From assembly GCA_020024475.1 (NCBI GenBank), contig JAHHTS010000022.1, forward strand, positions 1 to 32,000: 32,000 nt of DNA, written 5' to 3'. Every line of letters begins with the position of its first letter. Positions within the stretch are counted from its first letter, which is position 1. Source of the DNA: Oscillospiraceae bacterium (lineage in GTDB: Bacteria > Bacillota > Clostridia > Oscillospirales > Ruminococcaceae). The notes under the pieces are model-generated. The model worked only from the letters and a program-made list of their open reading frames with translations, ran no database searches and was not told the DNA's origin. A program made the position numbers and the translations under genes. Shown piece by piece: positions 1 to 21,946 of this stretch.

Positions 1-289
1 TTTATTTCGATTGGTTATTTAGTTATGAATAGACAATATCATTCAATACAATCTCATAAGTACAAAAACAAATGTTATTTATCAATACTATCTCTCTCAT
101 CACCCCCTATGCTTTTAAGTGCTCAGTTACACCTTGCCTTTCGCCATTTCCTTTATCAGATGCTCCGCCATATTCCACTCCAAAGTATAAATTTGAGTAA
201 TGTGTTAATATAACTTTCCGCTGTGCATAAGTTTACATAAAATACCTTTATGTGTTCCTTTAAATACAGTTTCATCATTTGGATATATA

Positions 290-899
290 CTAAAACAGTA
301 TCTATCTAAAAAAGTAATAAACTAAAAAGGAGCTGTTATTAAAAAAATTATCTAATCATCATAGTATAAAAATTTTATTAAAAGTATTGAAAATACACAG
401 TAGTACTAACTATTGATAATATTAGGCGAAAGGTTTACGTAAAATAAGTGTTAATCATGTATCAATATCAATTAAACAACTTAATATACATTCTATTGCA
501 ATAAAAAAGCATAAACACCACAAACAAAAACTTAACTCTACTATTTCTCATTAAAATCTTGCAGAACAAAAATTCACAGCCAATAAATCTAATCAAATAT
601 GGTTATCTTATATTATGTATATCTATACCATTAAAAATGGTTGGACTTATTTATCAAGCGTAGTAGATGTTTATACCAGAAAAATTATTGGTTTTTATGC
701 TAAGAAATAGATAAACATATTATTTTATTTGACATTAAAAACGCTTGCCTTAATCAAAGCTACCCTAGCGGTGTTATCTCACACAGTAATAGTAAATTTC
801 AATATAACTCCAATAATTATATATATTTTGCTATCAGTTTTAATACAAACTTTCTCTATACTAAAATTCGTATTTTCATGCTCAGATTATTGACTATAA
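290..899 (+). repeat. Left copy of a 610-bp direct repeat; partner at 20713..21322 (offset 20423)
   Basis: Read base by base against 20713..21322 with no mismatch or indel seen. Flanks diverge immediately outside both ends (289 a vs 20712 t; 900 g vs 21323 t). Confidence 0.93.
308..899 (+). pseudogene. IS3-family transposase orfB remnant, truncated at both ends, with stops and a frameshift
   Basis: A AAA AAG slippery heptamer at 308-314. Translation of 573-710 gives FTANKSNQIWLSYIMYIYTIKNGWTYLSSVVDVYTRKIIGFYAKK*, which fits the IS3 DDE core around the first catalytic Asp (W.sDITYI..YL..V.DLysRKIIGw). A shifted frame downstream reads GVISHSNSKFQYNSNNY, the HSDxGxQY box with D to N. There are in-frame TAA/TAG stops. 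No orfA, inverted repeats or orfB C-terminus are present. Confidence 0.75.
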
Positions 900-909
900 G
901 CTAGTCGTA

Positions 910-933
910 TTTTGTCTATAATTATAGACAAAA
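910..933. repeat. Perfect 24-bp palindrome ttttgtctataa/ttatagacaaaa, function unknown
   Basis: Self-complementary over all 24 nt. It lies 11 nt beyond the right edge of the left 610-bp repeat. No U-tract follows on either strand, so it is not a typical terminator. Confidence 0.85.
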
Positions 934-934
934 T

Positions 935-978
935 AAAATCAAAATATGTTACTCTTTTTTGTAACATATTTTGATTTT
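935..978 (-). terminator. Rho-independent terminator closing the minus-strand gene array
   Basis: 18-bp perfect stem (aaaatcaaaatatgttac / gtaacatattttgatttt) with an 8-nt loop. On the minus strand it is followed by UUUUAUUUU. It starts 10 nt after the stop of the 403-aa ORF. Confidence 0.7.
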
Positions 979-987
979 ATTTAGATT

Positions 988-2199
988 TTAGGATAGTAAA
1001 TAAATTTTTTTATCATCAAAATATATTTGCGAAGTATGGTTATAAATGCTAATCATAGTATCCATTTGTTGTAATATACCTGTTGCACCTGGATTACTTA
1101 GTGTTGCAAATTCTTTAACACATTTAGTCTCAATTTCTTTAGCATTACCTTTAATAGTTTTACCACCGTCCTGAAGAAACTCATCAACTTGACCTTCTTT
1201 AACAAACGGAATAGATCCTATAAAATCTCCTACACCTTTTGTAGCAATTCCAACTCCTTTAAGTAAATTAGTCTCCATTGAGGAATCACTTATTTTTTCG
1301 ATATATAACGAAGCTTTGCTAAAAATATCTCTATATATAGCGGACAAATTTGTTATCTCATTTTTTATCTCAGATATGTATTCTTCTTTAAAATTACCAC
1401 CTAGCATAATTTCCAACAACGAAGCTAAAGAGTATGTATAAAGAGATAATCTGTAATAATTGAATTTATCCTGCAATTTATTAAACTTTGACTTAACTTG
1501 CGTATGCACCGTAATAAAATGTTTTGAATCAATTAATTCAGAAACTTCTTTTTGATAAGCATTCATATTCTTGCGGGCAGTTCTTTGTATATCAAGAACC
1601 ATTTTATAATTACTTGTAATAAAATTCTCATTGTCCCAATTCAACTTATACTTGTTCACAATATTCATTAATGTTTCAACATCTGCTTCGATTTCTGCCT
1701 TTTTCTCTCTTTCTAAAAAAACTAAAATTTGCTTTTGCATTTCTTGAATTTGACCGAGCTGTTTTTCAATGCTGAATAAAGCAACCGCCATCATCATCGT
1801 TGCCGGATTTATGGGCATAACAGTAGTTGAAGTTGCTGTTAATGGATTAGCAGCTTGAAGTTGGGCGAATTTTGATTTCCCTGTAGCAGTCTTAAATGCA
1901 CCCCAAAAGTTTCCGTTTTGAGCCACTTTAAGTGTATCTCCTAACCCTGCATTTGCTAATCTAAATAATCCTTGTGTGTTAATTGTTGCTGTCTGTGTCA
2001 CTGTGTGTAAAGAAGGAATTAGTGATGAAACACCTGCTCCTAAAGTAGCTAATTGTGCAATTGGAACACTTATAGTATTACTGCTTTCTATATTTTTTCT
2101 TGCTGTAGATAGCATTTCTTCGCCAATTTGAATAATTTCATTTGATTCATTGGTCATATCTATGTGATTTATACTATCTACTTTAATTATTTTCCCCAT
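988..2199 (-). CDS. Hypothetical 403-aa protein with no recognisable domain; candidate effector downstream of the WYL regulator
   Basis: Uninterrupted ORF with AGGAGG 6 nt upstream of the ATG. The N-terminal third is Gly/Ala/Thr-rich with hydrophobic stretches (LATLGAGVSSLIPSL, PATMMMAVALFSI). The middle is helical or coiled-coil-like, and the C-terminus is Gly-rich (KGVGIATKGVGDFIGSIP). I could not find nuclease, ATPase or protease motifs. Confidence 0.8.
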   Translation of the reverse strand: MGKIIKVDSINHIDMTNESNEIIQIGEEMLSTARKNIESSNTISVPIAQLATLGAGVSSLIPSLHTVTQTATINTQGLFRLANAGLGDTLKVAQNGNFWGAFKTATGKSKFAQLQAANPLTATSTTVMPINPATMMMAVALFSIEKQLGQIQEMQKQILVFLEREKKAEIEADVETLMNIVNKYKLNWDNENFITSNYKMVLDIQRTARKNMNAYQKEVSELIDSKHFITVHTQVKSKFNKLQDKFNYYRLSLYTYSLASLLEIMLGGNFKEEYISEIKNEITNLSAIYRDIFSKASLYIEKISDSSMETNLLKGVGIATKGVGDFIGSIPFVKEGQVDEFLQDGGKTIKGNAKEIETKCVKEFATLSNPGATGILQQMDTMISIYNHTSQIYFDDKKIYLLS

Positions 2200-2267
2200 A
2201 AAAAACCTCCTATTTTTATAATATTAAATTAATTTTTATTGTAGGATTTGTTTGGTTTACGAATCCG

Positions 2268-3242
2268 TTATTCCATTTTATTGTAAGTATCTCGAACCAT
2301 ATCTTTATATTCTTCTTTTACATTTTCCGGACCAAGTATTTGTATTTTTCCTGAGAAACCAAATACCCAACCATAAAATGTTGGACTTGATGCAACATTT
2401 GTAATCACTCTAAATGAGTTCATATCATAAGCAAGGGTAGTTACATCCTCACCAAACTTGTCAATAATAGTTTTCATCAAACTGTTGTCGCAACGAAGAT
2501 CAACCTCAACAACATCACCTTCAAACATTTTAAACACTGTTTTTGTGAATTCATTAAGATCAAATTCTTCTGGTTGTGAATAACTTTCTCTTTCAAGAAT
2601 AGTAGGTATTGTTGCTATACGATCAACTCGAAAAGCAATAACTTTTTCTCGTTTTTCCGAGTACCCTAATACATAATAGTAATCACCATTCCAAGTAAGA
2701 TGGTAGGGACTTATAGTATAAACCTCACCATTATTCTTCAGCACTTTTTTCTTCAATCCAGTGAAATCATAGTACTGGAATGAAATTTGTTTATTTTCGT
2801 TAATAGCATCATTAATTGCATCAACGATGTAATATACCTGTTCATTATCAGGCTTGATATTTTTAACAACATAGTTGTTTCTTTTTAATTTCTTGATCTG
2901 ATAAATACTTGCTAAATCATTTATTTTATCTATTAGTATTTTGCTTTTATTTGAAGTAATGAACTTTGAAGATTCTACTGCATCGATGAGTAACTTTAAT
3001 TCAGGTAATTCAAACTTTCTATCACCCATAAAATATTTATTCTGTGATGATCTTGTTTCTACAATATCATAGCCAATATCTTGTAAAGCTTCAATGTCTC
3101 TCTTAAAAGTGACTCTATGCACAGTTAACCCATATTCACTTTCAAGCATATTAGATAATTCTGATGTAGTAAGCTGATGTTCCTCATCGGTATATTTTTC
3201 TAATAGTTTCAGTAAGCATATAATTCTTGGCTTTGTATCCAT
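2268..3242 (-). CDS. WYL-domain transcriptional regulator (HTH-WYL-WCX architecture, BrxR/CapW-like)
   Basis: N-terminal wHTH (RIICLLKLLEKYTDEEHQLTTSELSNML). Central WYL-type core (ISPYHLTWNGDYYYVLGYSEKREKVIAFRVDRI). C-terminal extension of about 100 aa. RBS AAGGA lies upstream of the ATG. Confidence 0.85.
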   Translation of the reverse strand: MDTKPRIICLLKLLEKYTDEEHQLTTSELSNMLESEYGLTVHRVTFKRDIEALQDIGYDIVETRSSQNKYFMGDRKFELPELKLLIDAVESSKFITSNKSKILIDKINDLASIYQIKKLKRNNYVVKNIKPDNEQVYYIVDAINDAINENKQISFQYYDFTGLKKKVLKNNGEVYTISPYHLTWNGDYYYVLGYSEKREKVIAFRVDRIATIPTILERESYSQPEEFDLNEFTKTVFKMFEGDVVEVDLRCDNSLMKTIIDKFGEDVTTLAYDMNSFRVITNVASSPTFYGWVFGFSGKIQILGPENVKEEYKDMVRDTYNKME

Positions 3243-3292
3243 AATATTTTCCTTTCAAAACAGGACTTACTGTTATAAAGTATAAAAACCAA

Positions 3293-5047
3293 TTATTTAA
3301 AAAGATTTTGCGCTTTAACAAATTTTATAAAATGAGAATAGATTTGCTCTGTCCTATTCAAGATATTTTCTTCGGTATAATCTTGATACTTACTTGCTAA
3401 TTTAACCAATTCTTCATCCTGTGTTCCATTTTTGTAAACACCTTTATCATTTTCAAAACCATTATAGTATTTTGCTTTATCCGTAAAGCGATAATCAGAA
3501 GCTCTGACGTTTATCTTTTCTTCCAATAATGCTTTGTTTCCAAGTTTTTCTAAACTGTTTTTATCTGATAAAGATTTTTCATTTTCCTGACGTTTTTTAG
3601 GATAAATATGTTCTATTTCTAATTTTGTATTAATATTAATTAGTTCTTGATTTGGTTCTTGATACATCCACCAAGCTAACATTGATTTTGTAATAGGACG
3701 CCCGTTAGTAAAAATATAATTTCTAATGCCATTATCTACTTCATTTTCATTTAACAAATAATCATTAAAAGAAATTTCTGCACCATTAACAATATTAATC
3801 ATTTCTGGATAAATAGGTGTTCTTAATGCATTAACACCTGGTCTAATAAATGAATATGCCCATATAAAGGCGATTGTTTTATTTAAGAACACATATAGCT
3901 TTTCTTCATCCAATTCGTTTTCATTATTTCTATTAGACATAAAATATACTGATAAGAAATATGACCACATTCCATTTGGAGCATAATTAAGCACAAATAG
4001 TTGTTTAAGAACTCTATCCGAAAATACATTGGATTGAGTTTCTACAGAATGCCAAAATGAAGCTAATACTTCTAAATCATTCAAAGCTTGATCATTCTTT
4101 AATAAAGCATATCCATTCTTCTCAAAGAATTTACGTAAAGCTTCTGTTGTGGTATTCCTATTGCCTTGTTTAGCTCTTAGATAATACATATATTTTGTAA
4201 ATAATTCGTCCATAGGTGAGCCGGATTTAGAACTAAAAATTTGCTGAGAAACAAGTTCCAGTTCTTTCCATCTAGAAATAAATTCATCTTTTTCACCTTT
4301 CAACGAATAATATTTATAAAGTTGTGCTTTAAAAATATCTGTATCAGAAAGAGGTTTTCCTCTATCATTTAATGTTGAGAATATTCTTAAAGCTGTATCT
4401 TGTGATTCTGCTTCAATAGGCAATAATATACAATTCTTTAGAACTCTATTTGGTAAAAAAGCAAAGTATGATGGGTATTCGTTTAAGAATTCTTGAATAC
4501 GTATTTCAAAGAACCTAAACGTATCAGCATACTTACTTTTCATTGTTTTTGTTGCTTCACCATTCTTTAAAATTGAAATGAACTCTTCTTTATCCTCATC
4601 TGTTGAAACTTCAGAATCAATTTTTAAATGATTCTTATCAGGATTATCAAATTCATCAACTTTCCAAATACAAGCAGCAATGCTTTCTTTTGTTTTCTTG
4701 GTGTTATCATCTTTCATATTGAATAATTTTGAATAGAACGCTCTAAGTAAAAGCATAAGTGTTGTTAAACGTTGCTGTCCATCAATTATTTCTTGTTTGT
4801 TGTTACTATTCTTAAATGTAACAATCGGTCCTAAAAAATATTCATCGTTGTCTGAATCAAAATTATCTGCGTTACCTTCGGGAAAAGCAAATGAGAAAAT
4901 ATCATCCCATAATGTTTGACATTCAGCTTCTCCCCAAGCGTAAGGTCTTTGATAATCAGGAATTAAAAAATCAGACTTTTTATCCGAGAATAATTCTTTA
5001 ATTGTTTTTTGATCTATGTTTAATTTTGACATTTTTCTCCTCATCAC
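3293..5047 (-). CDS. DUF262/DUF1524 GmrSD-family enzyme (type IV restriction-like, BrxU-like)
   Basis: DUF262 motifs IPDYQRPYAW and IIDGQQRLTT. C-terminal His-Me finger-like LEIEHIYPKK (DUF1524). The ORF-track start is GTG at 5047. An ATG at 5032 preceded by GAGGAG is a plausible true start. Confidence 0.85.
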   Translation of the reverse strand: MMRRKMSKLNIDQKTIKELFSDKKSDFLIPDYQRPYAWGEAECQTLWDDIFSFAFPEGNADNFDSDNDEYFLGPIVTFKNSNNKQEIIDGQQRLTTLMLLLRAFYSKLFNMKDDNTKKTKESIAACIWKVDEFDNPDKNHLKIDSEVSTDEDKEEFISILKNGEATKTMKSKYADTFRFFEIRIQEFLNEYPSYFAFLPNRVLKNCILLPIEAESQDTALRIFSTLNDRGKPLSDTDIFKAQLYKYYSLKGEKDEFISRWKELELVSQQIFSSKSGSPMDELFTKYMYYLRAKQGNRNTTTEALRKFFEKNGYALLKNDQALNDLEVLASFWHSVETQSNVFSDRVLKQLFVLNYAPNGMWSYFLSVYFMSNRNNENELDEEKLYVFLNKTIAFIWAYSFIRPGVNALRTPIYPEMINIVNGAEISFNDYLLNENEVDNGIRNYIFTNGRPITKSMLAWWMYQEPNQELININTKLEIEHIYPKKRQENEKSLSDKNSLEKLGNKALLEEKINVRASDYRFTDKAKYYNGFENDKGVYKNGTQDEELVKLASKYQDYTEENILNRTEQIYSHFIKFVKAQNLFK

Positions 5048-5086
5048 TTATCCGATAAAAATTAAATGAATTTATCATTAGGATAT

Positions 5087-7159
5087 CTACTCAACTCCTA
5101 ATGCTTTATATACAGCATCCTCTGCACTTACGTACGGTATTAACTGAAATGCTGACATTAATTCAGGTGGAACTGTAACTAAATCAGCCATAGAAATTGC
5201 TGGAATAAGTACCTTTTTAGCACCACTATCCAAACATACTTGAAGAACATTTGCTAATTCTTCAACTTTAATCATAGTTCCTGCAATAGTTATATCACCT
5301 AATACTGCTAAACTACTTATAGTAGGTTTCCCTAAAGCAATAGATGAAATTGCAATTAATGTAGGAAGCGCCAATGTATCTGTCATTCCTATTCCTTGAA
5401 GATCTTGGTAATTAACAATATAGTCTTTTGTAGTTGTACTAATACCTCCACTGATACGTGATGAATTAGCTTTTAAATAATTAAGTGCTGTGTTTGTAGC
5501 CTCTTTTGCTTTAGTGTTAGTACCAAGTCCAGAACGCTCAAATTTACCAGTACCAGGCATAATTTGAGATTCTAAACGATAAGCTCCAAGCATTCCCGAT
5601 TTACCTCTAGATACTGTGTAAATTTGTCCTGGATTACATATTCCTTCTGGAATAAGTTTTCCTCCACCTTGTTCAGGAACTGAAACATAATGTTCATCAA
5701 AAGTTTCATTATCAATGTAAGAGAAATTTACGTCATAAAATTCCATTCCACCAAGCTTTTTAAGTTGTTCTTTTACTCTACGACGCATTTCTAATGCAAT
5801 CTGAAGAATTTCTTCTAATTGCTCTTTAGTATATTCACCATCTGGATAAATTAACTTAATAAATCCACCAACTATTTTTCTAACTGCAATGGTATCTCTT
5901 TGGTTAAGGTTTTTTCCTAAATGAAAATATTTATCTAATGCATCCCCACATTGTTCCTTGCGTAATTCACGAATAAATTCTGCTAAATAATCTGTAATAA
6001 AACCATAAGCATTTGTAAAATGTTCTGGTCTAAATTTAGGAATTTCCCATCCCGGTATGTAACAGTGCATGCGATCTAAGAATGCAGTGTCTGTACCCAT
6101 TTCGGGTGGAAATGGATCAAACAAACTTGACGTCTTTAACAAAACATCCACACTTTGATTTATATTACCAACAAAAACCATAGATGCAGAAGCTGCTTTT
6201 TCTTCTTTTCCACGTGCAAAAGATCCAGATGCCATATAGTCTTTCATAATTTGAATACCATCTTTATCTTTAAAATTGATTCCAGCAACTTCATCAAAAG
6301 CAACACAATCCCAAAGTCCAACTAAACCAACAGTTTTTCTTCCCATATTATAGAAAAGGTTGGCAACTGTTGTTTGTCCTCCTGATACAAGGATACTATT
6401 CGGAGAGATTTCTTTATAAATATGAGATTTACCAGTGCTTCGTGGTCCTAATTCGCAAAGGTTAAAATTGTTTTCTACAAGAGGAAGCATACGTGCAAGA
6501 AGTAACCATTTTTCACGATATTCTAACTTGTCAGGTTCCATTCCAATAGAGCGAAGCATAACATTCATCCATTCTTCTTGGGTAAACATTTTTCTACCTT
6601 GTTTCAACTCATCAATATCAACGTGTGGCATTTGAATCGGTGTCAACTTGCGAATATGAATAGGAGAGGAATTTTTATCTTCCTCAATAAACTCATATTC
6701 TAATTGACAAATACACCAAATACCACCACATAATAAACGATCAAATTTACTTGGGTATTGTTCTGATATAGGAATATTTTTTATTCCTAAGTTTGAAAAT
6801 TCAGCCTCATATGTATCTTTCTTTATATTTAGATTTACCGTGATCTTATCAATAACTGTATAACTTCCTTTTTGACGAAGTACCGATAATATTTTTTGTG
6901 CTTCATCCGGACGCACATAGTTATCTGCTAAAATCTTTTTTACTGTAGCAACTCCTTCTTCAATGATAGAAGGATCATCTGAACTACAATATTGTCCTAA
7001 CAAGAATTCAAGAACGTATACAGGGACGTTTGCTCCTTCTTTAATTGACTTTGTTAAGTCCTTACGAACGATTTTTCCATCAAAGTTTGTTCTCAACTTC
7101 CTATTTATTTCTTCATTTTGATCAATATACAAACTTGAATCTATCATAAATTCATCCAA
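5087..7159 (-). CDS. brxL: BREX Lon-like protease BrxL
   Basis: 690 aa with P-loop GPRSTGKSH and a C-terminal Lon-protease-like domain. It sits directly after pglZ, as in type 1 BREX. It ends in TAG. Confidence 0.92.
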   Translation of the reverse strand: MDEFMIDSSLYIDQNEEINRKLRTNFDGKIVRKDLTKSIKEGANVPVYVLEFLLGQYCSSDDPSIIEEGVATVKKILADNYVRPDEAQKILSVLRQKGSYTVIDKITVNLNIKKDTYEAEFSNLGIKNIPISEQYPSKFDRLLCGGIWCICQLEYEFIEEDKNSSPIHIRKLTPIQMPHVDIDELKQGRKMFTQEEWMNVMLRSIGMEPDKLEYREKWLLLARMLPLVENNFNLCELGPRSTGKSHIYKEISPNSILVSGGQTTVANLFYNMGRKTVGLVGLWDCVAFDEVAGINFKDKDGIQIMKDYMASGSFARGKEEKAASASMVFVGNINQSVDVLLKTSSLFDPFPPEMGTDTAFLDRMHCYIPGWEIPKFRPEHFTNAYGFITDYLAEFIRELRKEQCGDALDKYFHLGKNLNQRDTIAVRKIVGGFIKLIYPDGEYTKEQLEEILQIALEMRRRVKEQLKKLGGMEFYDVNFSYIDNETFDEHYVSVPEQGGGKLIPEGICNPGQIYTVSRGKSGMLGAYRLESQIMPGTGKFERSGLGTNTKAKEATNTALNYLKANSSRISGGISTTTKDYIVNYQDLQGIGMTDTLALPTLIAISSIALGKPTISSLAVLGDITIAGTMIKVEELANVLQVCLDSGAKKVLIPAISMADLVTVPPELMSAFQLIPYVSAEDAVYKALGVE

Positions 7160-7177
7160 AACAAAAACCTCCTAAAA

Positions 7178-9697
7178 TTATCCGAAGAAACCAAAGTCAT
7201 CTGCAAAAGCAATATCCATAACAATTTCGTGCCTAAAAATTTCAATATCATTTTTATCGTCGAATGCTACTAAATAATACTTTTGTGATTTATCATATTT
7301 CTTATTTTTTAAGCTAAAGCGAAGTCTGAACATTCTTTTAGCTGTGTCAGTATCTTTTTTATCTGCAACAATAATGTTCTCATTTGAAATCTTTTCATTA
7401 TCATCAGAAATAAAGTAAACTCTGTAATTCGTTTCTTTTACAACATCACTTACTGGCTCAGTTTGTACAAAATCTAATGTAGTAATTAAGTTAGTTATTT
7501 TATTTGTTAGACTTACTAATGCAATTTGTGCAGAAGTTGTTTCTTTCTTACCACGTTCTACTTTAACTTCTAAAAGAGGAACAAGTAATTCTTGAGGTGA
7601 GCAACCACCGTGAACAAAGTTTTGTCCAGCACCACCAACTTTAAATATATCTGAAGCAATAGGGTACGAAACATATCTGTCATCCTTATTTCCTAAGACA
7701 CGTCCAAGTGAAATAGAATTAACTCCATCTTCATTAATTGCATCCGGACTAATAACATATCTTTGACCTGTACTAGCTGATTTAGCTTTAAAAGATATTT
7801 TATCGTTAGCTTCTATCTTATCTCTTTTGTAGATAAATCCGTGATCAGCTGTAACAAAGAAATGGTGTGTATTAGCTAAAGAAGATACTCTACGCATAAA
7901 TGTATGGATTTCTTCTATCGCTTCTTCGCAAGCTGTAAATACTTCGTTTTCAGTATTTGATGCATCACCTCTAGCATCAACTTGATTATGATAAACATAA
8001 ACTACATCTTGTCCAGTAAATATTTCTCGTAATTCATCACGTTTCATATTTTTCATTGTGTCAAATTGAATGCAATTACTATTCACCTTGTAATTCTTTA
8101 AGATTCTAGAACGCTGTTCAGTTGTAGCACAAGGCTTTGCATCAATCAACACTTCATACTCATCTGTATATGAAAGTTCTTTATGAGGAAGTAAAGAAGC
8201 CATACCTAATGGGGTATACGATGGAAGTACACCTTGCATAGCATTAAGTGATGATATACATTTTTCATCGGCTTGTAATTTTTCATATAATGTATGAGCA
8301 ACTTCATATCTTAACGCATCCGAAATAATAACAACTGTTCTTTCTTTAGCATTATTTATATGATTAGCAAAGAAGTTTTTCTGATAACGCAATCCAGTAT
8401 CTCCACCTGCACTGGTGAATTCTGTGTTCCAGTTAACTGTAATTTTGTTCAAATAGTCATTAGTATAAATGTTTTCAACTAGTTCTCTAACTTTTTCAAA
8501 AGCCGTTGTATCTTCGATAGAATCTAAATGATAATAGAAATATCTGTATCTTCTATCAATCTTAAATCCTTCATTTAAGTAGAATTTAAGCACATTGTTT
8601 ATACCACTGATAGGGTGATACTTACCACTTGATATAATTGCAAATGCATTTTCAATTACAAAGTATTCATTTTTAAATCTCTTGCCATAATGCTTTTTAC
8701 GTTGTTGTAAACACAATTCATCAATAGACTTATTATTTAACTTAGCACCAATATCTTCTTGCTCTAAGCGTTCTATCATCCATTTAATGAGTAGCTTATC
8801 AATTCCTGAGAATATGTTGCAATCGACTATATCATTGATTTCCATTTTTGCAAAATACTTATCACCGTTGATAGCATTAAATACTTTATCAGCAATCTCA
8901 TCATATCTCTCGCCGTAAATATAACTATTCATAAGATTGTCTATGAAAGCAATAATATTTCCAGACTTATAAGACACAAACGGTTTCCAAGCTTGTGGTA
9001 CATCTGTACGAATTGCTTTCGCAATATATGTTACAAACATAGTAATAACAAGTTTTTCTAAAGTTGGTTTTGCGTCATTGTATCCAAAGTTATTGTCTGC
9101 TTGTTGCCAAAAGGCCTCAAGCAGATCATATTTTTCAAACTCCTGAAGATATTTATTATCTACAAAATCATCGTCAGTTATAATTACACGAAGTACCTCT
9201 TCAAAAGAGCAAGTTTTACTCTTGCATAAAACACTCATCAAAGCTACTTCTATACTACTTCTTGTGAAATTATCAATTTCTAAATCATAGAATTTTTGTA
9301 TTCTATCTTTGTTTGCGAAGAATTTAATGTAATGTTGAATTACTGGTTTATATCTCTCATCTATTCCCAAGTCAACAGTTAATAGAGAAGCTCTATCTGC
9401 AAAAAATTCTTTTGAATACTGAATTGTGTCAAATAGATGATTTTCTCTAATGTTTGGTTTTGGAAACGGAGCATAAATCAAATAATTTGTTGTTTTATCT
9501 TCGCATTCTAAAAAATATTTTATATAAAATTGATTGTCCGGTTCTAAATATAGTACTTTTGCATTTTCAAGTTCAATCGTATTTATATCTTCTTGAAACT
9601 CTGCATTGGCATCGTACCAGAACACTAATTTTCTCACATCACCGACAAACTCAGCATTGAGCTTGTCGGTAATCTGTTTTAAGTTAAGTTCTGCCAT
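7178..9697 (-). CDS. pglZ: BREX alkaline-phosphatase-superfamily protein PglZ
   Basis: 839 aa with PglZ-domain motifs VVIISDALRYEV and FFVTADHGF. AGGAGA RBS. Position and size are canonical. Confidence 0.93.
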   Translation of the reverse strand: MAELNLKQITDKLNAEFVGDVRKLVFWYDANAEFQEDINTIELENAKVLYLEPDNQFYIKYFLECEDKTTNYLIYAPFPKPNIRENHLFDTIQYSKEFFADRASLLTVDLGIDERYKPVIQHYIKFFANKDRIQKFYDLEIDNFTRSSIEVALMSVLCKSKTCSFEEVLRVIITDDDFVDNKYLQEFEKYDLLEAFWQQADNNFGYNDAKPTLEKLVITMFVTYIAKAIRTDVPQAWKPFVSYKSGNIIAFIDNLMNSYIYGERYDEIADKVFNAINGDKYFAKMEINDIVDCNIFSGIDKLLIKWMIERLEQEDIGAKLNNKSIDELCLQQRKKHYGKRFKNEYFVIENAFAIISSGKYHPISGINNVLKFYLNEGFKIDRRYRYFYYHLDSIEDTTAFEKVRELVENIYTNDYLNKITVNWNTEFTSAGGDTGLRYQKNFFANHINNAKERTVVIISDALRYEVAHTLYEKLQADEKCISSLNAMQGVLPSYTPLGMASLLPHKELSYTDEYEVLIDAKPCATTEQRSRILKNYKVNSNCIQFDTMKNMKRDELREIFTGQDVVYVYHNQVDARGDASNTENEVFTACEEAIEEIHTFMRRVSSLANTHHFFVTADHGFIYKRDKIEANDKISFKAKSASTGQRYVISPDAINEDGVNSISLGRVLGNKDDRYVSYPIASDIFKVGGAGQNFVHGGCSPQELLVPLLEVKVERGKKETTSAQIALVSLTNKITNLITTLDFVQTEPVSDVVKETNYRVYFISDDNEKISNENIIVADKKDTDTAKRMFRLRFSLKNKKYDKSQKYYLVAFDDKNDIEIFRHEIVMDIAFADDFGFFG

Positions 9698-9710
9698 AAA
9701 ATTTCTCCTG

Positions 9711-10016
9711 TTAAAAAGGAAGCCAGTCCCTTAATTCTTTCAACCCTTTATAAGTTTTCATCAATGTTGAATTATTATTCAGGTATTCCATTCCTTTTAC
9801 TGTTAATTTCGTACCATCTAAAAAGCAGTTTATAAAATGACTGCTATTTCCACTCTCTATAAATTGTGCGCCTTTAATAAGCCCTTCGTCTTGGCAAGCT
9901 TCAATTATATCGAAATACTCCCATTTTTCTATATTATAGTCTTCGGCTGTAGGTATATTGCCATCATTTAGTTCTCGCATAAAGCTGAGCATAACTTTTA
10001 GCTTGTTTACTGCCAT
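9711..10016 (-). CDS. YjcQ-like small winged-helix protein inserted between pglX and pglZ
   Basis: 101 aa. The pattern KLKV..SFMRELNDGNIPTAEDY...EACQDEGLIKG...LTVKGMEYLNNNS.MKTYKGLKELRDWLP matches my recollection of the YjcQ family. GAGGTGA RBS. Gaps to both neighbours are tight (10 and 13 nt). Confidence 0.7.
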   Translation of the reverse strand: MAVNKLKVMLSFMRELNDGNIPTAEDYNIEKWEYFDIIEACQDEGLIKGAQFIESGNSSHFINCFLDGTKLTVKGMEYLNNNSTLMKTYKGLKELRDWLPF

Positions 10017-10026
10017 TTATCTCACC

Positions 10027-13000
10027 TCAAATCTTAGCCAAAATCTGCATATTCTTTCCGTCTACGGTCTGAACCTTATCATAGTTGACCTTAACGCCGT
10101 CATCGAGATCAATGTCGATACGGGACAAGGCAATATGAGCAATCTTGGCATCGTAATCTTTCGTTTCCTTGAGCTGTTTTTGAAGCTTTTCTTTACGCTT
10201 GTTTGCTGCGGAAATCTCTTTGTTGTCATTACTGTTATCAATGATGTCCTGCATACGCTCAATTTCTTTTTCATACACACGCTGCATCTTGTGGAGATAT
10301 TCTACACGCAGGTGACCAACAGTGTCCTCATTCCAACGGTGCATATAAACAAGAGCCTTAAAGCCATTCTGCTTACCACTGTCAAAGAGCCAGTAAATCG
10401 GGCGTTTCTGATACTTCTTAATGTGATCCTTGATAAAGTCATTAAGGAAGTAGTTGCGAATAACCTCTCTGCTGGTTTTCCCCTTGTTTCCAAGTGCATC
10501 AGCAACAAAGTTAAGGTTTTCTTCCAAGGTATCCTTACCGTAAACCACTTCAATAAACTTCACAAAGCGGCCTACAATGTCATCCTCAAAGTATTCTTCG
10601 TCAGTCAGCGGGATGCAGTTATCCGCATCAGGAATAAAGGTTGTATATTTGCTGTCATCCCATTCGCTGCCGGCGTAAGCAAGTCCATCCACATCCAATG
10701 AATATCGTCCCAGCATACAGCCCACAGCATAAGAAATGAGGGATTGGATATCTCTTGTTTTGTCGGCAAGACGCATTGCTATATCACGAGCTACGACTTC
10801 CGGAGTTACATCATTTTTAAGATTATAGGTTTTAATGAATAAAGTATTTATTCTTTCTTCATTCTTCTTTAATGTAGAATATCTTTCCGAGGAGTCGTAT
10901 GCCCACTGGTTGAAAGATTCTTCTATTTTTGTTGAATTATAGCGAAGTAATGGATGTTTTTCAAAATCCCAAGATTCTTCAAAATCGTCCCAATCAGCCT
11001 TTGCCAACTTTATACATTCTTTTGAGAGGTCATCAATTTCCTCCTTGATATCTTTATCCACAATCAAGGGTAAATCCCCGATATTTCCAACCTGAAAATT
11101 AACAGTTGGTGCAAGTATAGACAAATACATAAAAGCAACCTTACTACAAAGAAAGGCCAAAATATAGTACATTAAGTCATCTGATGGAAACATAGACGAA
11201 CCAGAAACATCAAAAAGAAATCCGTTTGTTTTATATCTAACGCCAAAGTTTTCGAATCCAAATAAAGACCAAGTAATTCCTGGTTTAAAATAAAAACTTG
11301 GATTCCTTAAGACTGCACTCTTGTAGTTTCTTAGTTCATAACCATCGTTTTCCCAATTTACAATATATTCGTTCATTCCATACCATTTTCGGAAATTTCC
11401 ACCTTTGTTGTATGGAAACCATTTTAACCCCTTTTCCTTTCCATTGTTAAACATTGAGGCTTTTTCTTTCGAAATTTCTGTCCAAAATCTAACAAAACGA
11501 TTATTATCAGCAGTTGCCATACCCTGTTTAGGTTCGGCATATTTTCTTAAAGGATTTGAAATATTGAAATTATTTAACGCTTCATTAGAAATCCAATATA
11601 CAAACGGGTTTCCTGGTATTTGATAAAACTCGGTCTGATCTACATTAAATACCTGTTCACTATTTCTAAAATTTCTGAGTTTTTCTTCTGTACTATAAAA
11701 ATCAGCCAGTCTCAAATAACTTCCTTTATAGTTCTTTAAGTGTGCTTTTCTCAATGAAAAAGAAGTTGCCAATACATTAAATGAATTAAGTTCTTCAAAT
11801 GTAGCAGCACCAGTATGAACCATTGATGTTATTGTTGTTTCATTTAATACCTTGGAACGTAATTTTTTAAAAGAAGCAATAAACATCCAAGTATGAATTG
11901 TTATCATCGAGGTGAAGCCTCTGTGTTTTGTAAAATTCACACATTTCATAATAAACGCTGAATATAGTTCGGATTTCTCATCAGTATAGTTTTTATCAAG
12001 AAAATCACTTAATTTCCCATTCAAACTTTTTTTGCCCATATATGGAGGATTCGTGCATACGACATCATATTTTTGAGCCATTACTTCTGCAACTTGTACT
12101 AAAGGTAATAGTTCATCCAAGACAACTTCACGGCTCATACTAATATCATCTTCAATTTCTTTGAATCGTGCATATAGTGCATTAAAATCGACAGGAGTCA
12201 CATCAATAATAGAGCCATATTCTTTAGCATCGTGCATTTCAGACAGAATACTCTTAATGGCTTTAATAAGCGTGCTATCACCATTGCAGAAGTAATCAAC
12301 CGCATGCTGATCCAATCCATTGCTTTCACGAATTGCGTATACATTAGGTTGAATATTTCGACCAAGGAATCTGCGATCATACTGTCGAGCTTTCATCATC
12401 ATAGCAAAATAAGAAAGCTGCGCCGCACGCTTATCAATATCTAAACCATAGATATTGTTCTCAACGATGTTGCGGACTGCATCACGGGCAGTGTATCCCA
12501 TTGAATCATATATCTGCATTAAAACATCAAAGGCATACACAAGAATATGTCCACTACCCATACAAGGGTCAATCAATTTGATGTCTTCCGGAGAGATGGT
12601 TGAATAATTCTTGCGAATTTCTTCAAGTTGCTTCTCAACAGATTCTTCCTGCTGAGCTTCCTCCAAATAATACTTCCAGTTGCTTTTCAGTTCTTTATTC
12701 GGATGTCCCTCCACCCAAAGACGACCAAGGCTGTTTTCAACCATATAGCGAACAATCCAATCAGGGGTGAACAACTGTGTTGCGGCAGGAATATCCTCCT
12801 TGCGTATTTTCTTATTTTTCTTCAAGTTAGCAAAAACGGTATCCTTTGGAACGGAATTATAGAACTGATACATCCAGCCGATAATTTCAATCTGGCCTTC
12901 TTTTTCCACATTGAAATCATCTTCATCTACATCGTGTGTCAAACGATATACAAGACCATCTTTATCTGTGAAGGAGATAGTAAGAAGAAGTTCCGTATAG

Positions 13001-13572
13001 TCGTCAGTTTTTTCAAAAAGCTCAGGTAAAATCTCGTGGAGCTTATTGCACTGCTTAATAAAAAGCATACGGAACAGTTCATCCAGCTTATTTTTATCCT
13101 TAAGCTCGATAATATGATCCTGCTCAAAAGGTGTAAACTCCAGATCTGTATCAAACGGAGAGGTTACAAAGTCAGGCTCCACCTTGGCTTTGTTTTCAGA
13201 AGAGAGTACACGGATACCGGAAGGAAGATAGTTGTTGACCTCCATAAAACGGATAGCAACCAAACGGTTGAACCAAGTGTAGGCAACTTCTTCCACGACA
13301 AATTCAAAAGCTTCCTTGTATTTACCGCAATCTTTTTCCTTTTCATGAATTGCTTTTACAAGAGCATCACGCTGCTTAATTTCTTTCCCCTGAACCTCAG
13401 CATATTCTTTTGTTCCAATATCAAAGAATTTGAGGTCAGCAGTAGACTGCGGAAGTTCTTGCGCAATTCCACTGTCTGTAATGCCAAGCATTCCTGCTTT
13501 GTATGTTATATCTGCAATGAGCTTTTCTCTTGCTCCTATTGCAAAGTTTTTAATTTTAGTCTTATTCATCAT
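10027..13572 (-). CDS. pglX: BREX N6-adenine DNA methyltransferase PglX
   Basis: 1181 aa with SAM motif I LIDPCMGSGHIL and catalytic VVCTNPPYMGKK. AGGAGGA RBS. Position between brxC and pglZ is canonical. It ends in TGA. Confidence 0.94.
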   Translation of the reverse strand: MMNKTKIKNFAIGAREKLIADITYKAGMLGITDSGIAQELPQSTADLKFFDIGTKEYAEVQGKEIKQRDALVKAIHEKEKDCGKYKEAFEFVVEEVAYTWFNRLVAIRFMEVNNYLPSGIRVLSSENKAKVEPDFVTSPFDTDLEFTPFEQDHIIELKDKNKLDELFRMLFIKQCNKLHEILPELFEKTDDYTELLLTISFTDKDGLVYRLTHDVDEDDFNVEKEGQIEIIGWMYQFYNSVPKDTVFANLKKNKKIRKEDIPAATQLFTPDWIVRYMVENSLGRLWVEGHPNKELKSNWKYYLEEAQQEESVEKQLEEIRKNYSTISPEDIKLIDPCMGSGHILVYAFDVLMQIYDSMGYTARDAVRNIVENNIYGLDIDKRAAQLSYFAMMMKARQYDRRFLGRNIQPNVYAIRESNGLDQHAVDYFCNGDSTLIKAIKSILSEMHDAKEYGSIIDVTPVDFNALYARFKEIEDDISMSREVVLDELLPLVQVAEVMAQKYDVVCTNPPYMGKKSLNGKLSDFLDKNYTDEKSELYSAFIMKCVNFTKHRGFTSMITIHTWMFIASFKKLRSKVLNETTITSMVHTGAATFEELNSFNVLATSFSLRKAHLKNYKGSYLRLADFYSTEEKLRNFRNSEQVFNVDQTEFYQIPGNPFVYWISNEALNNFNISNPLRKYAEPKQGMATADNNRFVRFWTEISKEKASMFNNGKEKGLKWFPYNKGGNFRKWYGMNEYIVNWENDGYELRNYKSAVLRNPSFYFKPGITWSLFGFENFGVRYKTNGFLFDVSGSSMFPSDDLMYYILAFLCSKVAFMYLSILAPTVNFQVGNIGDLPLIVDKDIKEEIDDLSKECIKLAKADWDDFEESWDFEKHPLLRYNSTKIEESFNQWAYDSSERYSTLKKNEERINTLFIKTYNLKNDVTPEVVARDIAMRLADKTRDIQSLISYAVGCMLGRYSLDVDGLAYAGSEWDDSKYTTFIPDADNCIPLTDEEYFEDDIVGRFVKFIEVVYGKDTLEENLNFVADALGNKGKTSREVIRNYFLNDFIKDHIKKYQKRPIYWLFDSGKQNGFKALVYMHRWNEDTVGHLRVEYLHKMQRVYEKEIERMQDIIDNSNDNKEISAANKRKEKLQKQLKETKDYDAKIAHIALSRIDIDLDDGVKVNYDKVQTVDGKNMQILAKI

Positions 13573-13584
13573 TGATCCTCCTGA

Positions 13585-16500
13585 TTAGAACTCAATGTTG
13601 AGTACAGTGTCGTCTTCAAGCGATGCCATCAGTTTCTTTTCCAACTCAGCTACATAGTGTTTTACATCATCCTGAGTTTCAATCTGCCAAGTGGTAGAAT
13701 TGTTGATGGTCTTAATGCTAACTGTTTTTGTCTTCTTAACCGGAGCAACAGGTACCGGTTCACTGCCAGAGTTATCATCCTCGTGGTCAGGCTCTACCGG
13801 AGCCGGTGTCAGCTTTGCTTCTTCAGTAGCAATTTCATTCAGGCAACGCACCTTAAGTGCATCTACCTCAACAGTAATCGTCTGGAGTGTTGCTACATTA
13901 TTGCAATGAGAAGTCTTGTCACGGATTTCTCTAAAAGCTTCTACATATTTATCAACCAGCTTATCGTGGCATTTCTTGCCATCAAGCTCGTCAAAGACAC
14001 GCTTTCTTGCCACATCAATCGCTGCATCAACAGGCTTCTGCATCTCAGAGAGCAATCCGCCATAGGATTTGATAAAGTTTTCTAACAAGTCAGGCAGCTT
14101 AAAGATTTCACCGTAAGGATCAGCCTTTTTAAGGATGCTCTTAATGCTGGCTACAATGGACTCAATATCTTTATTTACAATGAAAGTCTTACTGTCATCG
14201 TAAATACCCATCAAACGCAGAGCTTTATCAAAGATGCCTTTCTGTTCGCCCTCAAAGAATTTCTTTACAGGCTCATAGTCTTCTGCAAAGTCGAGATATT
14301 CATCCTTGCTTTTATCAATACCAGCAAAGAACTCGGCAGAATACTTCATCTGGAGAACATCCGTCATCAGCTTCTTGCCTGTACCGATAAATCTCTTTCC
14401 GGGATAGGCAGGCTGATTCTTATAGTGAATTTCCAGCTTTTCAAGTTCAACCTTAAGTCTATCAGCATAACCGAGGAAGCTCTTCATAATGGCATCGTCA
14501 TCATCACTGGACGGAGTAATGCCAAATAGTTCCTTCATTACTTCACGGACTGCTTTCTTCTGGCGTTCATTTGCTTTGACTTTCTTGTCCGTCATCAGTT
14601 TGTCCTGGTACTCTTTTCGGGTGAGAAAGCGAATGATTTCTTCCTCAGATTTAGAAATAAGAGTAACAGCTTCGTTATGAACGAACAGTGCAATCTCGCC
14701 ATCCTTAAAGAGTTTTGCAACAAGCCACTGAACATCAGCTTCAACAAAACCGTAAGGTGCTTTAATAAAACGCTCTATCAATGATTTCATAGATGTCTTC
14801 ATATGTCTTTGTGTGTTAAGTGAAATGTAGTCATTGACATCCTTTAATGCAAGTTCGTTTTTCTTAGTACTTGTGCTAGATAATGCTAATTGTTGAGTAG
14901 GATCTTTAAACATTGAACGAATGTCGCTTTCACTCATAGCAGTATCAATATAAGAGAGTTTATGATAAACGTTAGCCACCAATTTGCCAAGTGCATCATT
15001 TATTTTTGTATGTATATCCTTAGATGTTGACTGGATTTTATCTCCATTAACATAAATTTCTGCATTTTTTAAACTTTCTTCTAAGAATAATCTTGCAGTT
15101 GCGTTTCTTTCACGCATTTCGACTTTCTTAGCTTCTTTAATTTGTTCGAACTTAGTTACTGCGTTTGTAGCATCGTAACGAATAAATTTTTCTATCTGTA
15201 AAGCAGATCTTATTTCATCTAAAAAAGTTCTGTCTTCTGGCATAACAATCAATACACAGTTATACTGATCTGAAACAATTCTCATTGTTATGTCATCAGA
15301 TCTTTCGTCACTATTAGGTGTTAGAATCTTTAATGTAATATCATTATTTTGATTAGCTTTATATGGCTTTTCATCAACAACTTGGTTAAACGCAAATGCG
15401 TATCTACCGTTAAAAGAAGGGTAACGATATTTCTTTTCATCATATAATCCATCGAAAATCATTTCCGAAACTTTGGCAATAACTTCTCCAGAATCAACAT
15501 TCTGTGATTCGATAGCTCTATTTATCTCTTGTTCTTCATCTGTAAGAAAAACATAAATTTCACCATTCTTTTGTACAAGTGTTTGACGAACTAATCGTTT
15601 TAAGGAATCCTCAACCTTTTGTGTTAAACTCATACGGTCATCATTTATATTTGTAACCATAAGACTAGTAATGTTTTCTACATTAGCTTTTATTTCTTTT
15701 ACATATTTAATCATAAATAATGCTTTAAGGACATTAACATCAAAACATTCTTTATCGTGATTAGGGTTGAGGTAATCATTATCTAACGCACGAGAAATTA
15801 CTCCTTTATGAGAATGATCCAAAAATTGTTCAAGTGCATCATAGAACATATTAAACGGAACAATTTCTCCGGGCTCTTTATCCATAACTTTAACTGCTGA
15901 CTCTTTAAAAAGAGCAAGCATTGAACGTTCACCTTCAGCAAGGTGCTTGCCTGATGCACCGTGTGTACGAATAGATGTAAGTACACTTGCTAAAAGATTA
16001 AATTGATATGGTATAAAAGGATAAATATCCGAAAAGTTTTCTTTTCCTGAATATAATTTTTTTTCAATACCATCATTAAATAAAATCAAATTTTTAATTA
16101 TAGTTGACTTATCATCATAAAGTAAAGAAAGTGTTTGTTTAGCACTATCACTTTTTTCAAGAATTCTCTTTTTAATAACTTCATCAACGTTTGCAGAAGA
16201 AAGAGAGAGTCTAGTGTCAAAACGTCCTTGAATTTTAGAAAAGTCGTTTCCTTTTGTTTTAGTAATAGAATCAATGTCTTGTTGGCTCGTTACGATAACC
16301 CAGGCTTTACCCTGACAAGCTGTTCCTAAATCTTCAGTCACAGTTTGAAGATTTAACATTAATTTAGAATCATCACCAATATACTGACCAATTTCATCAA
16401 TCAAAAATACAACGTGATGATTATTTCCTTTACTAGTAATATACTTTTTAACTAGCTGTGCAAAGTCTTCTACTTTATATTTGTATTCACCAGTTGCTTT

Positions 16501-17187: not shown

Positions 17188-17201
17188 ATTATTTTTCTCC
17201 T

Positions 17202-17777
17202 TTAATCAACTAATTTAAATGCTCGGTAATAGTTGTCATCTTTAATTTCACTGAATAATACTAATTCTTGTCCATCGTATACACCTGGATAAAAAAGCAC
17301 TACAGGAACATTATCGATTACCTGATGTAAATTATTTAAAACCGTATGTGACCTAAGAATTGGATAACATTTTCCTATTCCAGTAATAAAAACGATTGCT
17401 TTTTCTGGAGTATTTTCTTGAATGTGCTTTATTATTAAACCATCTGCCGATGTAATTTTAAGCATATTGCTTATAGATTTAGAAACACGTTCAAAACCTT
17501 TCTTCTTTTCAAAGTCGTAACACTTTTCAAGGAACCCTTTTTTCTTTAGAATATCAATCGTAATATAATATAAATCAAATTCTACGATTTTATAATCATC
17601 CATTGATGAATTATTTTTCTTTTTCATATAATCAATTCGTTCTCTAACATACAGTTCTTTTTCGGCTGGATAATCAAAAATATAATATCCCACTTCATTT
17701 CCTAATCCTTTATTTTCTCTAAAGCTTGGCTTTTTGATAATTTCTTCAGCCTTATCAAGTCGTTGATCAAGTGTCAT
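17202..17777 (-). CDS. brxB: BREX protein BrxB (DUF1788)
   Basis: 191 aa with the N-terminal pattern GLGNEVGYYIFDYPAEKELYVRE typical of DUF1788. Lies between brxA and brxC. Confidence 0.88.
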   Translation of the reverse strand: MTLDQRLDKAEEIIKKPSFRENKGLGNEVGYYIFDYPAEKELYVRERIDYMKKKNNSSMDDYKIVEFDLYYITIDILKKKGFLEKCYDFEKKKGFERVSKSISNMLKITSADGLIIKHIQENTPEKAIVFITGIGKCYPILRSHTVLNNLHQVIDNVPVVLFYPGVYDGQELVLFSEIKDDNYYRAFKLVD

Positions 17778-17780
17778 CTC

Positions 17781-18383: not shown

Positions 18384-18395
18384 TCTATATCACCT

Positions 18396-18602
18396 TTAAT
18401 CATCTAAAATAACTTCACATATATCACCAATATCGCAATGAAACACCTTGCACATTTTCATAAGTACTTCTAATGAAACTGGTTCATCCTTATTAAGTTT
18501 AGTCATTGTATTAGAACTTATCTCGGCAGCTCTTAACAAATCAGCTCTTTTCATTTTGTTATCTATCATCAATTTTTGAAGCTTGTTGTAACTTATTTTC
18601 AT
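18396..18602 (-). CDS. Small XRE/Cro-type HTH regulator heading the BREX operon
   Basis: HTH core KRADLLRAAEISSNTMTKLNKDEPVSLEVLMKMCKVF. The ORF track begins at a TTG at 18629. The ATG at 18602 has AAAGGA 7 nt upstream and gives a 68-aa protein. The stop lies 12 nt before brxA. Confidence 0.8.
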   Translation of the reverse strand: MKISYNKLQKLMIDNKMKRADLLRAAEISSNTMTKLNKDEPVSLEVLMKMCKVFHCDIGDICEVILDD

Positions 18603-18689
18603 AAACATTTCCTTTCTAATAATTGACAAATAGTTATTATATGTGACTATTTAACAATAAATAACATTAAATAAACTTATTCACTTTAT

Positions 18690-20046: not shown

Positions 20047-20057
20047 ATAAAAAACAA

Positions 20058-20594: not shown

Positions 20595-20712
20595 TACTTA
20601 ACTTGAGCCAAATACCAGAGATTAAAGTTTAAAATTGAAAAACTTTAACTGTTGCTGAAATTTAAAAAATCTCCAACAAAAACTTGCTCTTTTGGAGAAA
20701 TAAAATAACATT

Positions 20713-21937: not shown

Positions 21938-21946
21938 GGTAAGTCT

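Follow-up and report, generated by a model that had tools for sequence, protein, structure and literature searches.

A 403-residue orphan protein at the edge of a BREX island as a candidate stand-alone defense factor with an upstream box that recurs in phages

When a gene of no recognizable family lies directly behind a transcription regulator in a defense island, is it the cargo of that regulator, or does it act by itself? This question is raised by a 32,000-nucleotide (nt) stretch of an Oscillospiraceae bacterium genome (assembly GCA_020024475.1, contig JAHHTS010000022.1, positions 1 to 32,000), which we refer to in its entirety as the window. In the window, a minus-strand array of bacteriophage exclusion (BREX) genes and a type IV restriction enzyme gene ends in a regulator with helix-turn-helix (HTH), WYL, and WCX domains, followed by a 403-amino-acid (aa) protein that we call X403. 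A first-pass annotation of this DNA had read the last two genes as a module, in which the WYL protein controls a possible membrane-active abortive-infection effector. Our answer, which we hold tentatively, is that X403 is a stand-alone, autonomous, single-gene candidate defense factor and not one half of a WYL-controlled pair. The combination of its own upstream box, ribosome-binding site, and terminator with the mixed neighborhoods of its homologs argues that X403 is an autonomous cassette. The features on which this argument turns are as follows.

988..2199, minus strand: X403 open reading frame (ORF), 403 aa, ATG start, identified by the ORF call, homologs, and a structural model.
2206..2211, minus strand: AGGAGG ribosome-binding site, 6 nt 5' of the X403 ATG.
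2238..2263, minus strand: degenerate box copy TTCGTAAACCAAACAA (2263-2248), then 4 nt, then TACAAT (2243-2238), with spacing as in homologs.
931..982, minus strand: X403 intrinsic terminator, with a 22-bp stem, an 8-nt loop, and a U-run.
2268..3242, minus strand: HTH-WYL-WCX transcription regulator, 324 aa, identified by Pfam and PADLOC hidden Markov model (HMM) matches.

X403 is certainly a real gene because it has thousands of homologs, which range from 25 to 100% in identity. It lies on the 3' side of the WYL gene across a 68-nt spacer (2200-2267), in which RNA folding revealed no significant structure. The arms of its terminator (931-952 and 961-982) form a perfect 22-nt inverted repeat, and the corresponding RNA folds with -23.4 kcal/mol (z = -8.5 versus shuffles). 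The adjacency, the 68-nt gap, the AGGAGG site, and the strong terminator described in the first-pass annotation are all borne out at these coordinates.

The annotation had also placed X403 in no family, and this claim withstood broader searching. X403 has no meaningful family match in Pfam, PADLOC-DB v2, NCBIfam (including its BREX components), or PHROGs; the best Pfam and PHROG matches (E = 0.046-0.05) fall short of the cutoffs, and PADLOC and NCBIfam returned none. HEPN_AbiU2 (E = 0.046) and the other weak Pfam matches were set aside as chance, HEPN_AbiU2 being found in only 1 of 117 family members. Searches of the PDB were empty too, both by sequence and by a profile of the 117-sequence alignment. 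Motif scans for Walker A, HExxH, and HEPN Rx4-6H found nothing in X403, in agreement with the reported lack of nuclease, ATPase, and protease motifs. Likewise, a Gly/Ala/Thr-rich N-terminal part and a Gly-rich C-terminal part are evident from residue composition: G, A, T, and S make up 45% of residues 41-131, a stretch nearly devoid of acidic residues, and Gly makes up 20% of residues 311-345. A 612-aa member was considered as an informative domain fusion and rejected, as it merely adds an acidic, low-complexity N terminus.

The relatives of X403 are numerous. They amount to 2233 among 90%-identity clusters, and a profile search at E <= 1e-3 recovered 1197 clusters at 50% identity, 458 of them with E <= 1e-30; nearly all are about 380-430 aa long and unnamed. 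Relatives at 53-67% identity come from Lachnospiraceae, Oscillospiraceae, Erysipelotrichaceae, Peptostreptococcaceae, Desulfosporosinus, Enterococcus, Streptococcus, and Globicatella, as well as from metagenome-assembled genomes labeled Flexilinea or Bacteroidales, and this scattered taxonomy is a pattern of horizontal spread. The exact X403 protein of the window is absent from the contig index that was searched, and the closest WYL match is likewise not on record there. On sequence grounds, the X403 family is large, has no earlier description, and belongs to the accessory genomes of Firmicutes.

Structure prediction extends the orphan status from sequence to fold. The AlphaFold model of X403, built from a diverse 117-sequence alignment, has a predicted local distance difference test (pLDDT) score of 80.8 and a predicted template modeling (pTM) score of 0.70; it supersedes an earlier model from close homologs only, which had a pLDDT of 56. 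In this model, a beta head is formed by residues 42-126 together with C-terminal strands 391-402, and a helical bundle spans residues 132-387, with its longest helix at 272-327 and a Gly-rich tip loop of low confidence at 317-331. Foldseek returned only generic helical bundles from the PDB (best E = 0.025), and the sole confident structural match is an uncharacterized siphovirus protein. Judged by the model, X403 is an orphan by fold also, with no known match. The idea of a membrane-active effector fared less well, as evidenced by 19-residue Kyte-Doolittle maxima of 1.56 (residues 43-61) and 1.48 (residues 126-144): no segment of X403 attains the usual transmembrane threshold of 1.6. That threshold is exceeded in 39 of the 117 family members, mostly near residues 97-125 among the top-scoring members listed, and a latent membrane-inserting element is possible on the strength of these predictions.

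Evidence for independent expression comes from the DNA ahead of X403 genes. The loci compared here (L numbers) comprise 80 species-representative genome loci, 80 metagenome loci, and annotated contigs; the sample leans to a close subfamily (at least 53% identity), and ORFs in related loci are crude, greedy, longest-ORF calls. Alignment of X403 5' regions revealed a conserved box of 16 nt, TTCGCGAAAATTACAA, with the palindrome TTCGCGAA inside it; the box is followed by N4 and a -10-like T.WATGA element and lies 47-74 nt before the X403 ATG. When up to four mismatches are allowed, 45 of the 80 genome loci and 45 of 79 metagenome loci have the box at X403 (about 55%; e.g., L002, L009, L012, L015, and L030), behind unrelated upstream genes. 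Moreover, it persists between the WYL gene and X403 in L215, L216, and L239. Across 1.17 Mb of bacterial loci, 32 of 50 box matches (<=3 mismatches) stand at X403. The window copy lies 66 nt from the ATG, which is within the range of the homologs, and starts 4 nt past the WYL stop codon; the nearest relative, L001, carries TTCGTAAAATTTGCAA at the same place.

The box spans about -32 to -17 relative to the -10 hexamer, and no -35 hexamer is present at 16-18 nt. This arrangement resembles activator-dependent or sigma-appropriation phage promoters, such as those with a T4 MotA box or those served by Mu Mor/C. Also, X403 boxes often have G or C at the second position of the -10 element (TGTTATGA and TCTTATGA), a change that would be predicted to weaken the unassisted promoter. 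Other identities for the box were considered and rejected for misfits in spacing or conserved bases, namely, a hairpin, sigma-54, sporulation sigma factors, sigma-H, LexA, CodY, Spo0A, cre, and MerR-type spacing. The few strong copies away from X403 are in L076, where they stand before a Mor-family activator gene and a 59-aa ORF. In that locus (7080-7322 and 8280-8751), the 99-aa Mor gene lies behind a short leader ORF, the 59-aa ORF encodes a coiled coil, and both are 1-3 kb from X403. The Mor protein of L076 is a candidate box-binding factor; among the other loci retrieved, no Mor homolog was found.

The box also recurs in phages. The exact 16-mer is present in 92 IMG/VR stretches, and the 713 kb around exact phage boxes hold 45, 38, and 111 extra copies at 1, 2, and 3 mismatches, respectively, versus 0, 0, and 13 in shuffles. 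In the viral loci (L091-L170), there are up to eight boxes per contig, all co-oriented and intergenic, usually just past a terminator hairpin and ahead of small genes, DUF6353 membrane proteins, or tRNA genes; the consensus of the non-exact copies is tttttt..TTCGCGAAAaTTACAa-N4-TATtATGAaA. Arthrobacter phage Giantsbane (cluster AU, 50% GC) carries at least 8 boxes at 27.9-31.7 kb (L208/L209), and at least six of its proteins have homologs in 16-45 gut viral loci. Because Giantsbane and the gut contigs have these proteins in common, the box is carried by one broad phage lineage. For gp50 and gp54, two conserved proteins of these phages, the PDB holds no relative. Six of the Giantsbane box copies fall at genes 37-41, and a 32-bp intergenic repeat near genes 37-41 has been proposed as a recombination "boundary sequence" (bioRxiv 10.1101/2020.01.10.891226). 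We take this cluster AU repeat to be the same element as the box. Literature searches retrieved no account of the box as a promoter, of its presence in gut phages, or of its occurrence ahead of bacterial genes.

A mechanism can be proposed from these elements. X403 would be transcribed from a box that otherwise serves a broad phage lineage as a promoter-like element, present in many copies between genes, and with the weakened -10 that bacterial boxes often have, its expression may stay low until the factor that drives the phage promoters is present. The protein would be soluble and latent, a helical bundle whose beta head is uncharged and rich in Gly/Ala/Thr and whose tip loop is rich in Gly, and it would act without enzymatic chemistry as an anti-phage or anti-mobile-element factor. 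It might shift its conformation or oligomerize on a membrane or phage component, thereby stopping infection. In its boldest form, the proposal that X403 founds a new single-gene immune family with an unseen fold and with transcription wired to the box program of the invading phage itself is a long shot. If it were true, the phage transcription program would switch on a host effector, and the movement of the X403 cassette between defense islands would be accounted for as well, by a box that doubles as a recombination boundary sequence.

That X403 is a candidate new defense gene, as had been suggested, draws on its orphan sequence and fold, its large family, and its repeated siting beside unrelated defense systems. 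The two genes on each side of X403 belong to 122 Pfam families upstream and 92 downstream, and none of them is a conserved partner. A defense gene lies within two genes of X403 in at least 18 of 80 genome loci (in 4 of the 18, only by way of a WYL gene), and the pattern is repeated in the 80 metagenome loci; homologs thus recur in defense islands in diverse arrangements, by raw counts that have no matched background. For instance, X403 is directly 3' of brxL on the same strand with a 15-nt gap (L064 and L067) and directly 3' of pglZ in a BrxC-PglX-PglZ locus without brxL (L195-197). It follows, on the same strand, type III Res (L060, with a 12-nt gap; L019; and seven metagenome loci), GmrSD (L011, L014, and L210), a protein with reverse transcriptase and HD-CE parts that is a defense-type reverse transcriptase (L026), and SNF2- and PglZ-domain genes (L013 and L226). 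It also lies 3' of a BrxL-like ATPase system in L016, L044, L047, L215, L216, L239, and L278. Directly downstream of X403, a PD-T4-3-like GIY-YIG gene is found in 5 genome and 10 metagenome loci. Single cases adjoin AbiLi, UzuA, AriA, a type I restriction endonuclease, Cas9, or one of several PADLOC candidate systems. A 27%-identical member leads, with a 12-nt gap, an SNF2-GHKL-HNH-GHKL operon with an adjoining DNA methylase (L191-L193), which, with its two HATPase_c_3 GHKL proteins, looks like a defense-like system. X403 copies tend to lodge on the 3' flank of defense operons, those of BREX or BrxL type especially, and at the edges of mobile islands.

The window exemplifies both kinds of site, and the remaining features of its island are listed here.

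3243..3292, minus strand: 50-nt gap between the GmrSD and WYL genes, with a weak promoter-like match and a weak 71% palindrome.
3293..5047, minus strand: GmrSD/BrxU-like type IV restriction enzyme, identified by Pfam and PADLOC.
5087-7159, minus strand: BrxL.
7178-9697, minus strand: PglZ.
9711-10016, minus strand: YjcQ-family small gene, 101 aa, between pglX and pglZ.
10027-13572, minus strand: PglX.
13585-17187, minus strand: BrxC.
17202-17777, minus strand: BrxB.
17781-18383, minus strand: BrxA.
18396..18629, minus strand: regulator gene of XRE type (HTH_26), immediately 5' of brxA.
287..903: left member of a pair of 617-nt direct repeats that share 99.7% identity.
20710..21326: right member of this 617-nt repeat pair.
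908..935: perfect 14+14 (28-nt) palindrome, TATTTTGTCTATAA/TTATAGACAAAATA, at the junction of the left repeat and the island.

The genes from brxA to brxL (5087..18383) make up a type 1 BREX set, and the slot before brxA is occupied by the HTH_26 gene at 18396-18629, just as the first-pass annotation had it for an XRE protein. An inverted-repeat scan places the 71% palindrome at 3232-3259, and the gap at 3243-3292 is a possible regulator promoter or operator. The two 617-nt repeats are AT-rich and noncoding, and they bracket a 19.8-kb BREX-GmrSD-WYL-X403 block (904-20709) that runs from X403 through the XRE gene and includes about 2 kb of ORF-poor DNA. The palindrome at 908-935 overlaps the foot of the X403 terminator. 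Neither a recombinase nor a tRNA was found between the repeats, and an Rfam search of the window gave no match. The block looks like a Campbell-type insertion via homology or a hotspot cassette, and since X403 is inside the repeats, it travels with the BREX island at this locus. Outside the right repeat, the plus strand at 21617-24226 carries ORFs of 106 and 113 aa and a 615-aa ResIII/SNF2-type helicase, relatives of which are present in seven X403 loci; this stretch may be a further defense-like module.

A number of observations weigh against X403 as an autonomous defense factor. The functional support for such a role consists entirely of guilt by association, with no functional homolog, and the defense counts are aggregated PADLOC and Pfam tallies from crude ORF calls. 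Many X403 copies reside amid housekeeping or metabolic genes with no defense gene within 5-10 kb, and their metabolic neighbors include arginase/urease and beta-lactamase-fold genes. One X403 protein occurs on 24 contigs; in every case, it is flanked by a tRNA-U5-methyltransferase-type gene on one side and a TetR gene on the other, and no defense gene is near. Where X403 sits in a backbone with swapped cargo, its defense association could therefore reflect a hotspot neighborhood. As for the proposed mode of action, Kyte-Doolittle analysis predicts no transmembrane helix in X403. With regard to expression, the box of the window matches the consensus at only 10 of 16 positions, and the box could be a plain promoter for the host RNA polymerase.

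In the main rival explanation, X403 is not immune at all and is instead a backbone or "moron" gene of an integrative element or a stress or envelope protein beside defense hotspots. We regard this alternative as somewhat unlikely. The evidence for it includes a conserved block of YjbR, X403, Metallophos_2 (152 aa), and HTH (114 aa) genes, which lies 4-5 kb from two to three tandem large recombinase-like genes (L013, L019, L044, L045, L226, L232, L235, L236, L241, L263, L278, and L286). Upstream of this backbone, the defense cargo is exchanged among type III restriction-modification, SNF2 plus PglZ, and BrxL-like plus WYL genes, such that the whole looks like part of an integrative element that serves as a hotspot for defense cargo. 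Of 80 loci, 20 contain recombinase-like cluster c1, X403 occupies the very edge of the repeat-bounded island of the window, and some copies are stable, single-copy genes in a housekeeping context. Moreover, the promoter box is a phage intergenic element proposed to be a recombination boundary sequence (bioRxiv 10.1101/2020.01.10.891226). Nevertheless, X403 is nearly missing from phages (1 of 50,697 in GenBank, 3 IMG/VR loci, and 1 BFVD model) and has no relatives in 72,556 plasmids, and the variety of its adjoining defense systems, taxa, and arrangements exceeds what one element backbone would give.

A separate observation concerns the tRNA-U5-methyltransferase-type gene, which has X403 directly at its 3' side in several unrelated taxa (L200-L207 and L002, L022, L025, L032, L055, L217, L233, and L255). 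This gene, which we take to be rlmCD-like, also matches the PADLOC "mad2" model. Its adjacency to X403 may mark an insertion hotspot or a functional link.

The module of the first-pass annotation, in which a BrxR/CapW-like WYL repressor silences a membrane-active abortive-infection effector until infection, is improbable. In the window, its appeal is plain: the genes adjoin, are co-directional, and are 68 nt apart, and no terminator was found between them, so read-through into X403, and hence WYL input, is possible at this locus. The regulator itself has the winged HTH, WYL, and WCX architecture of the BrxR/CapW family, with Pfam matches to WYL (1.6e-13) and WCX (4.5e-7), a weak match to HTH_11 (0.016), and a match to PADLOC WYL models at 2.6e-29. 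The architecture thus agrees with the description of it as BrxR/CapW-like, whereas sequence similarity to the solved proteins of this family does not: phmmer against all PDB chains found no match at E <= 0.01, BrxR/CapW included, and at E <= 10, it brought up only PafC, PafBC, and WYL-domain chains. We take the last of these to be DriD, and a CapW structure was presumably among the chains searched. A BrxR structure has been deposited, and BrxR-type regulators have been reported to control downstream defense genes (PMC9122601). Picton et al. defined BrxR homologs by BLASTP E < 1e-5 to BrxR-Efer, and the homologs were reported to be 97% proteobacterial (PMC9122601).

Comparison among loci bears on whether the pairing is a rule. 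Six of the 80 genome loci and 11 of the 80 metagenome loci have a homologous WYL gene up to three genes upstream of X403, in three to four arrangements, which is far above chance for one regulator subfamily. Direct adjacency to X403 is limited to the window and L215/L216/L239; a YjbR gene stands between the two in L016/L044/L045/L047 and six metagenome loci, and the distance is 2 kb in L070/L071/L285/L287. These WYL proteins are 41-44% identical to that of the window. Yet a WYL gene is near only about 7-14% of the 160 loci, which leaves about 86-92% of X403 loci without one, and X403 keeps its own box even where a WYL gene adjoins (L215, L216, and L239). In L016, L044, and L047, the WYL gene is joined by 2-46 nt to the upstream operon and not to X403; in such L044-type loci, this distance from the aminotransferase gene means that the WYL gene ends the upstream operon. 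Also against a two-gene module, no convincing inverted-repeat operator precedes the WYL gene or X403, the WYL protein is dissimilar in sequence to solved BrxR/CapW chains, and X403 has no predicted transmembrane segment.

The operon in question recurs in L044 (1-9424), L016, L047, L215, L216, L239, and L278 and is apparently undescribed. Its products are a PglX-like protein of 1100 aa, a DUF7864-DUF7863-DUF7862 protein of 758 aa, a BrxL-like ATPase of 486 aa without a Lon protease domain, a cysteine-desulfurase-like class V aminotransferase, and the closing WYL regulator, and it looks like a defense system of BREX or phosphorothioation flavor. Close homologs of the window WYL protein (79% and 67% identical) are found behind other multigene, defense-like operons, with unrelated genes following them. 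That variable genes follow WYL homologs counts in favor of a module, as does the reported control of downstream defense genes by BrxR-type regulators (PMC9122601), but the unlikeness of the genes that follow these close homologs also counts against a WYL-plus-effector pair. These 67-79%-identical WYL genes (L183-L189), one of which is widespread in Clostridium innocuum, are on integrative elements. The operons before them consist of two N6_N4 methylases and an Fe-S protein or of a helicase and an ADP-ribosylglycohydrolase, and the genes after them encode small proteins with no ascribed function, of 127 aa in one case and of 301 aa plus HIRAN in another.

Taken together, we infer that the WYL gene belongs primarily to the island or upstream operon and, at most, adds read-through into X403. 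For the X403 family as a whole, these comparisons do not support a WYL-controlled module, and at this locus, such control is at most a possibility.

The proposal that X403 is a BREX-linked accessory that depends on the neighboring system, either as a second-line effector or as a partner of the BrxL/PglZ machinery, is the least likely of the three rivals: four to five independent arrangements, the window included, do put X403 at the 3' end of BrxL/PglZ loci, but about 85-90% of X403 loci lack any BREX-type gene over a distance of 10 kb, X403 is found equally after type III restriction-modification, GmrSD, or defense-type reverse transcriptase (DRT) genes and alone, and it is served by a promoter and a terminator of its own.

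If X403 is an immune factor, as the stand-alone reading would have it, it adds a family of more than 1000 clusters at 50% identity, whose fold is novel and which lacks enzymatic motifs, to the defense repertoire of human gut Firmicutes, which are underexplored because defense discovery has mostly used Proteobacteria. Its siting behind BREX, PglZ, and BrxL genes also offers a handle on the BREX mechanism. The box is of interest in its own right, as it links phages of very different hosts and is shared with one bacterial gene family. Finally, the case cautions against reading each WYL-adjacent gene as WYL-regulated cargo.

Comparison with known systems places X403 and its surroundings more precisely. 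The WYL gene of the window is like those of BrxR and CapW in the HTH-WYL-WCX architecture of its product and in its location in a BREX/type IV island, where it precedes, in the same direction, a gene with no ascribed function (PMC9122601; PMC9122589; PMC9122588; PMC11662680). It differs in lacking detectable sequence similarity to the solved chains, in lying at the 3' end of the BREX-GmrSD array and not before brxA, and in having no clear inverted-repeat operator.

Like the alpha pore-forming toxins of the ClyA, Hbl, and AhlB type, X403 combines a long helical bundle with a small beta-rich head that is rich in Gly/Ala/Thr, and it hides moderately hydrophobic segments in a soluble-looking protein. 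This likeness is a structural analogy only, and no membership is implied by it. X403 has no signal peptide, and its Foldseek matches to ClyA, AhlB, and AhlC are nonsignificant (E 0.2-0.7; TM 0.14-0.16), such that X403 was not assigned to the ClyA-type fold.

The T4 MotA-box and Mu Mor/C promoters offer the closest parallel for the DNA element. Like them, the X403/phage box precedes a sigma-70-type -10 element without a -35 element and is multicopy and co-oriented in early-type regions of phages. The 32-bp repeat of cluster AU is in the same place as the box in Giantsbane, although the preprint reads it as a recombination site and not as a promoter and covers cluster AU only (10.1101/2020.01.10.891226).

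Accessory genes such as BrxU and GmrSD differ from X403 in having nuclease/NTPase domains, and X403 is more often found without BREX. Nevertheless, X403, like them, recurs at the 3' end of BREX, BrxL, and PglZ loci, and the window carries both the type IV enzyme and X403, one after another. Last, X403 departs from single-gene defense systems and prophage morons (e.g., PD-T4-type single genes and Abi proteins) in matching no PADLOC or PHROG model and in being rare in phages. It resembles them in being a self-contained unit of promoter, gene, and terminator that is patchy, horizontally spread, and set in the context of defense islands.

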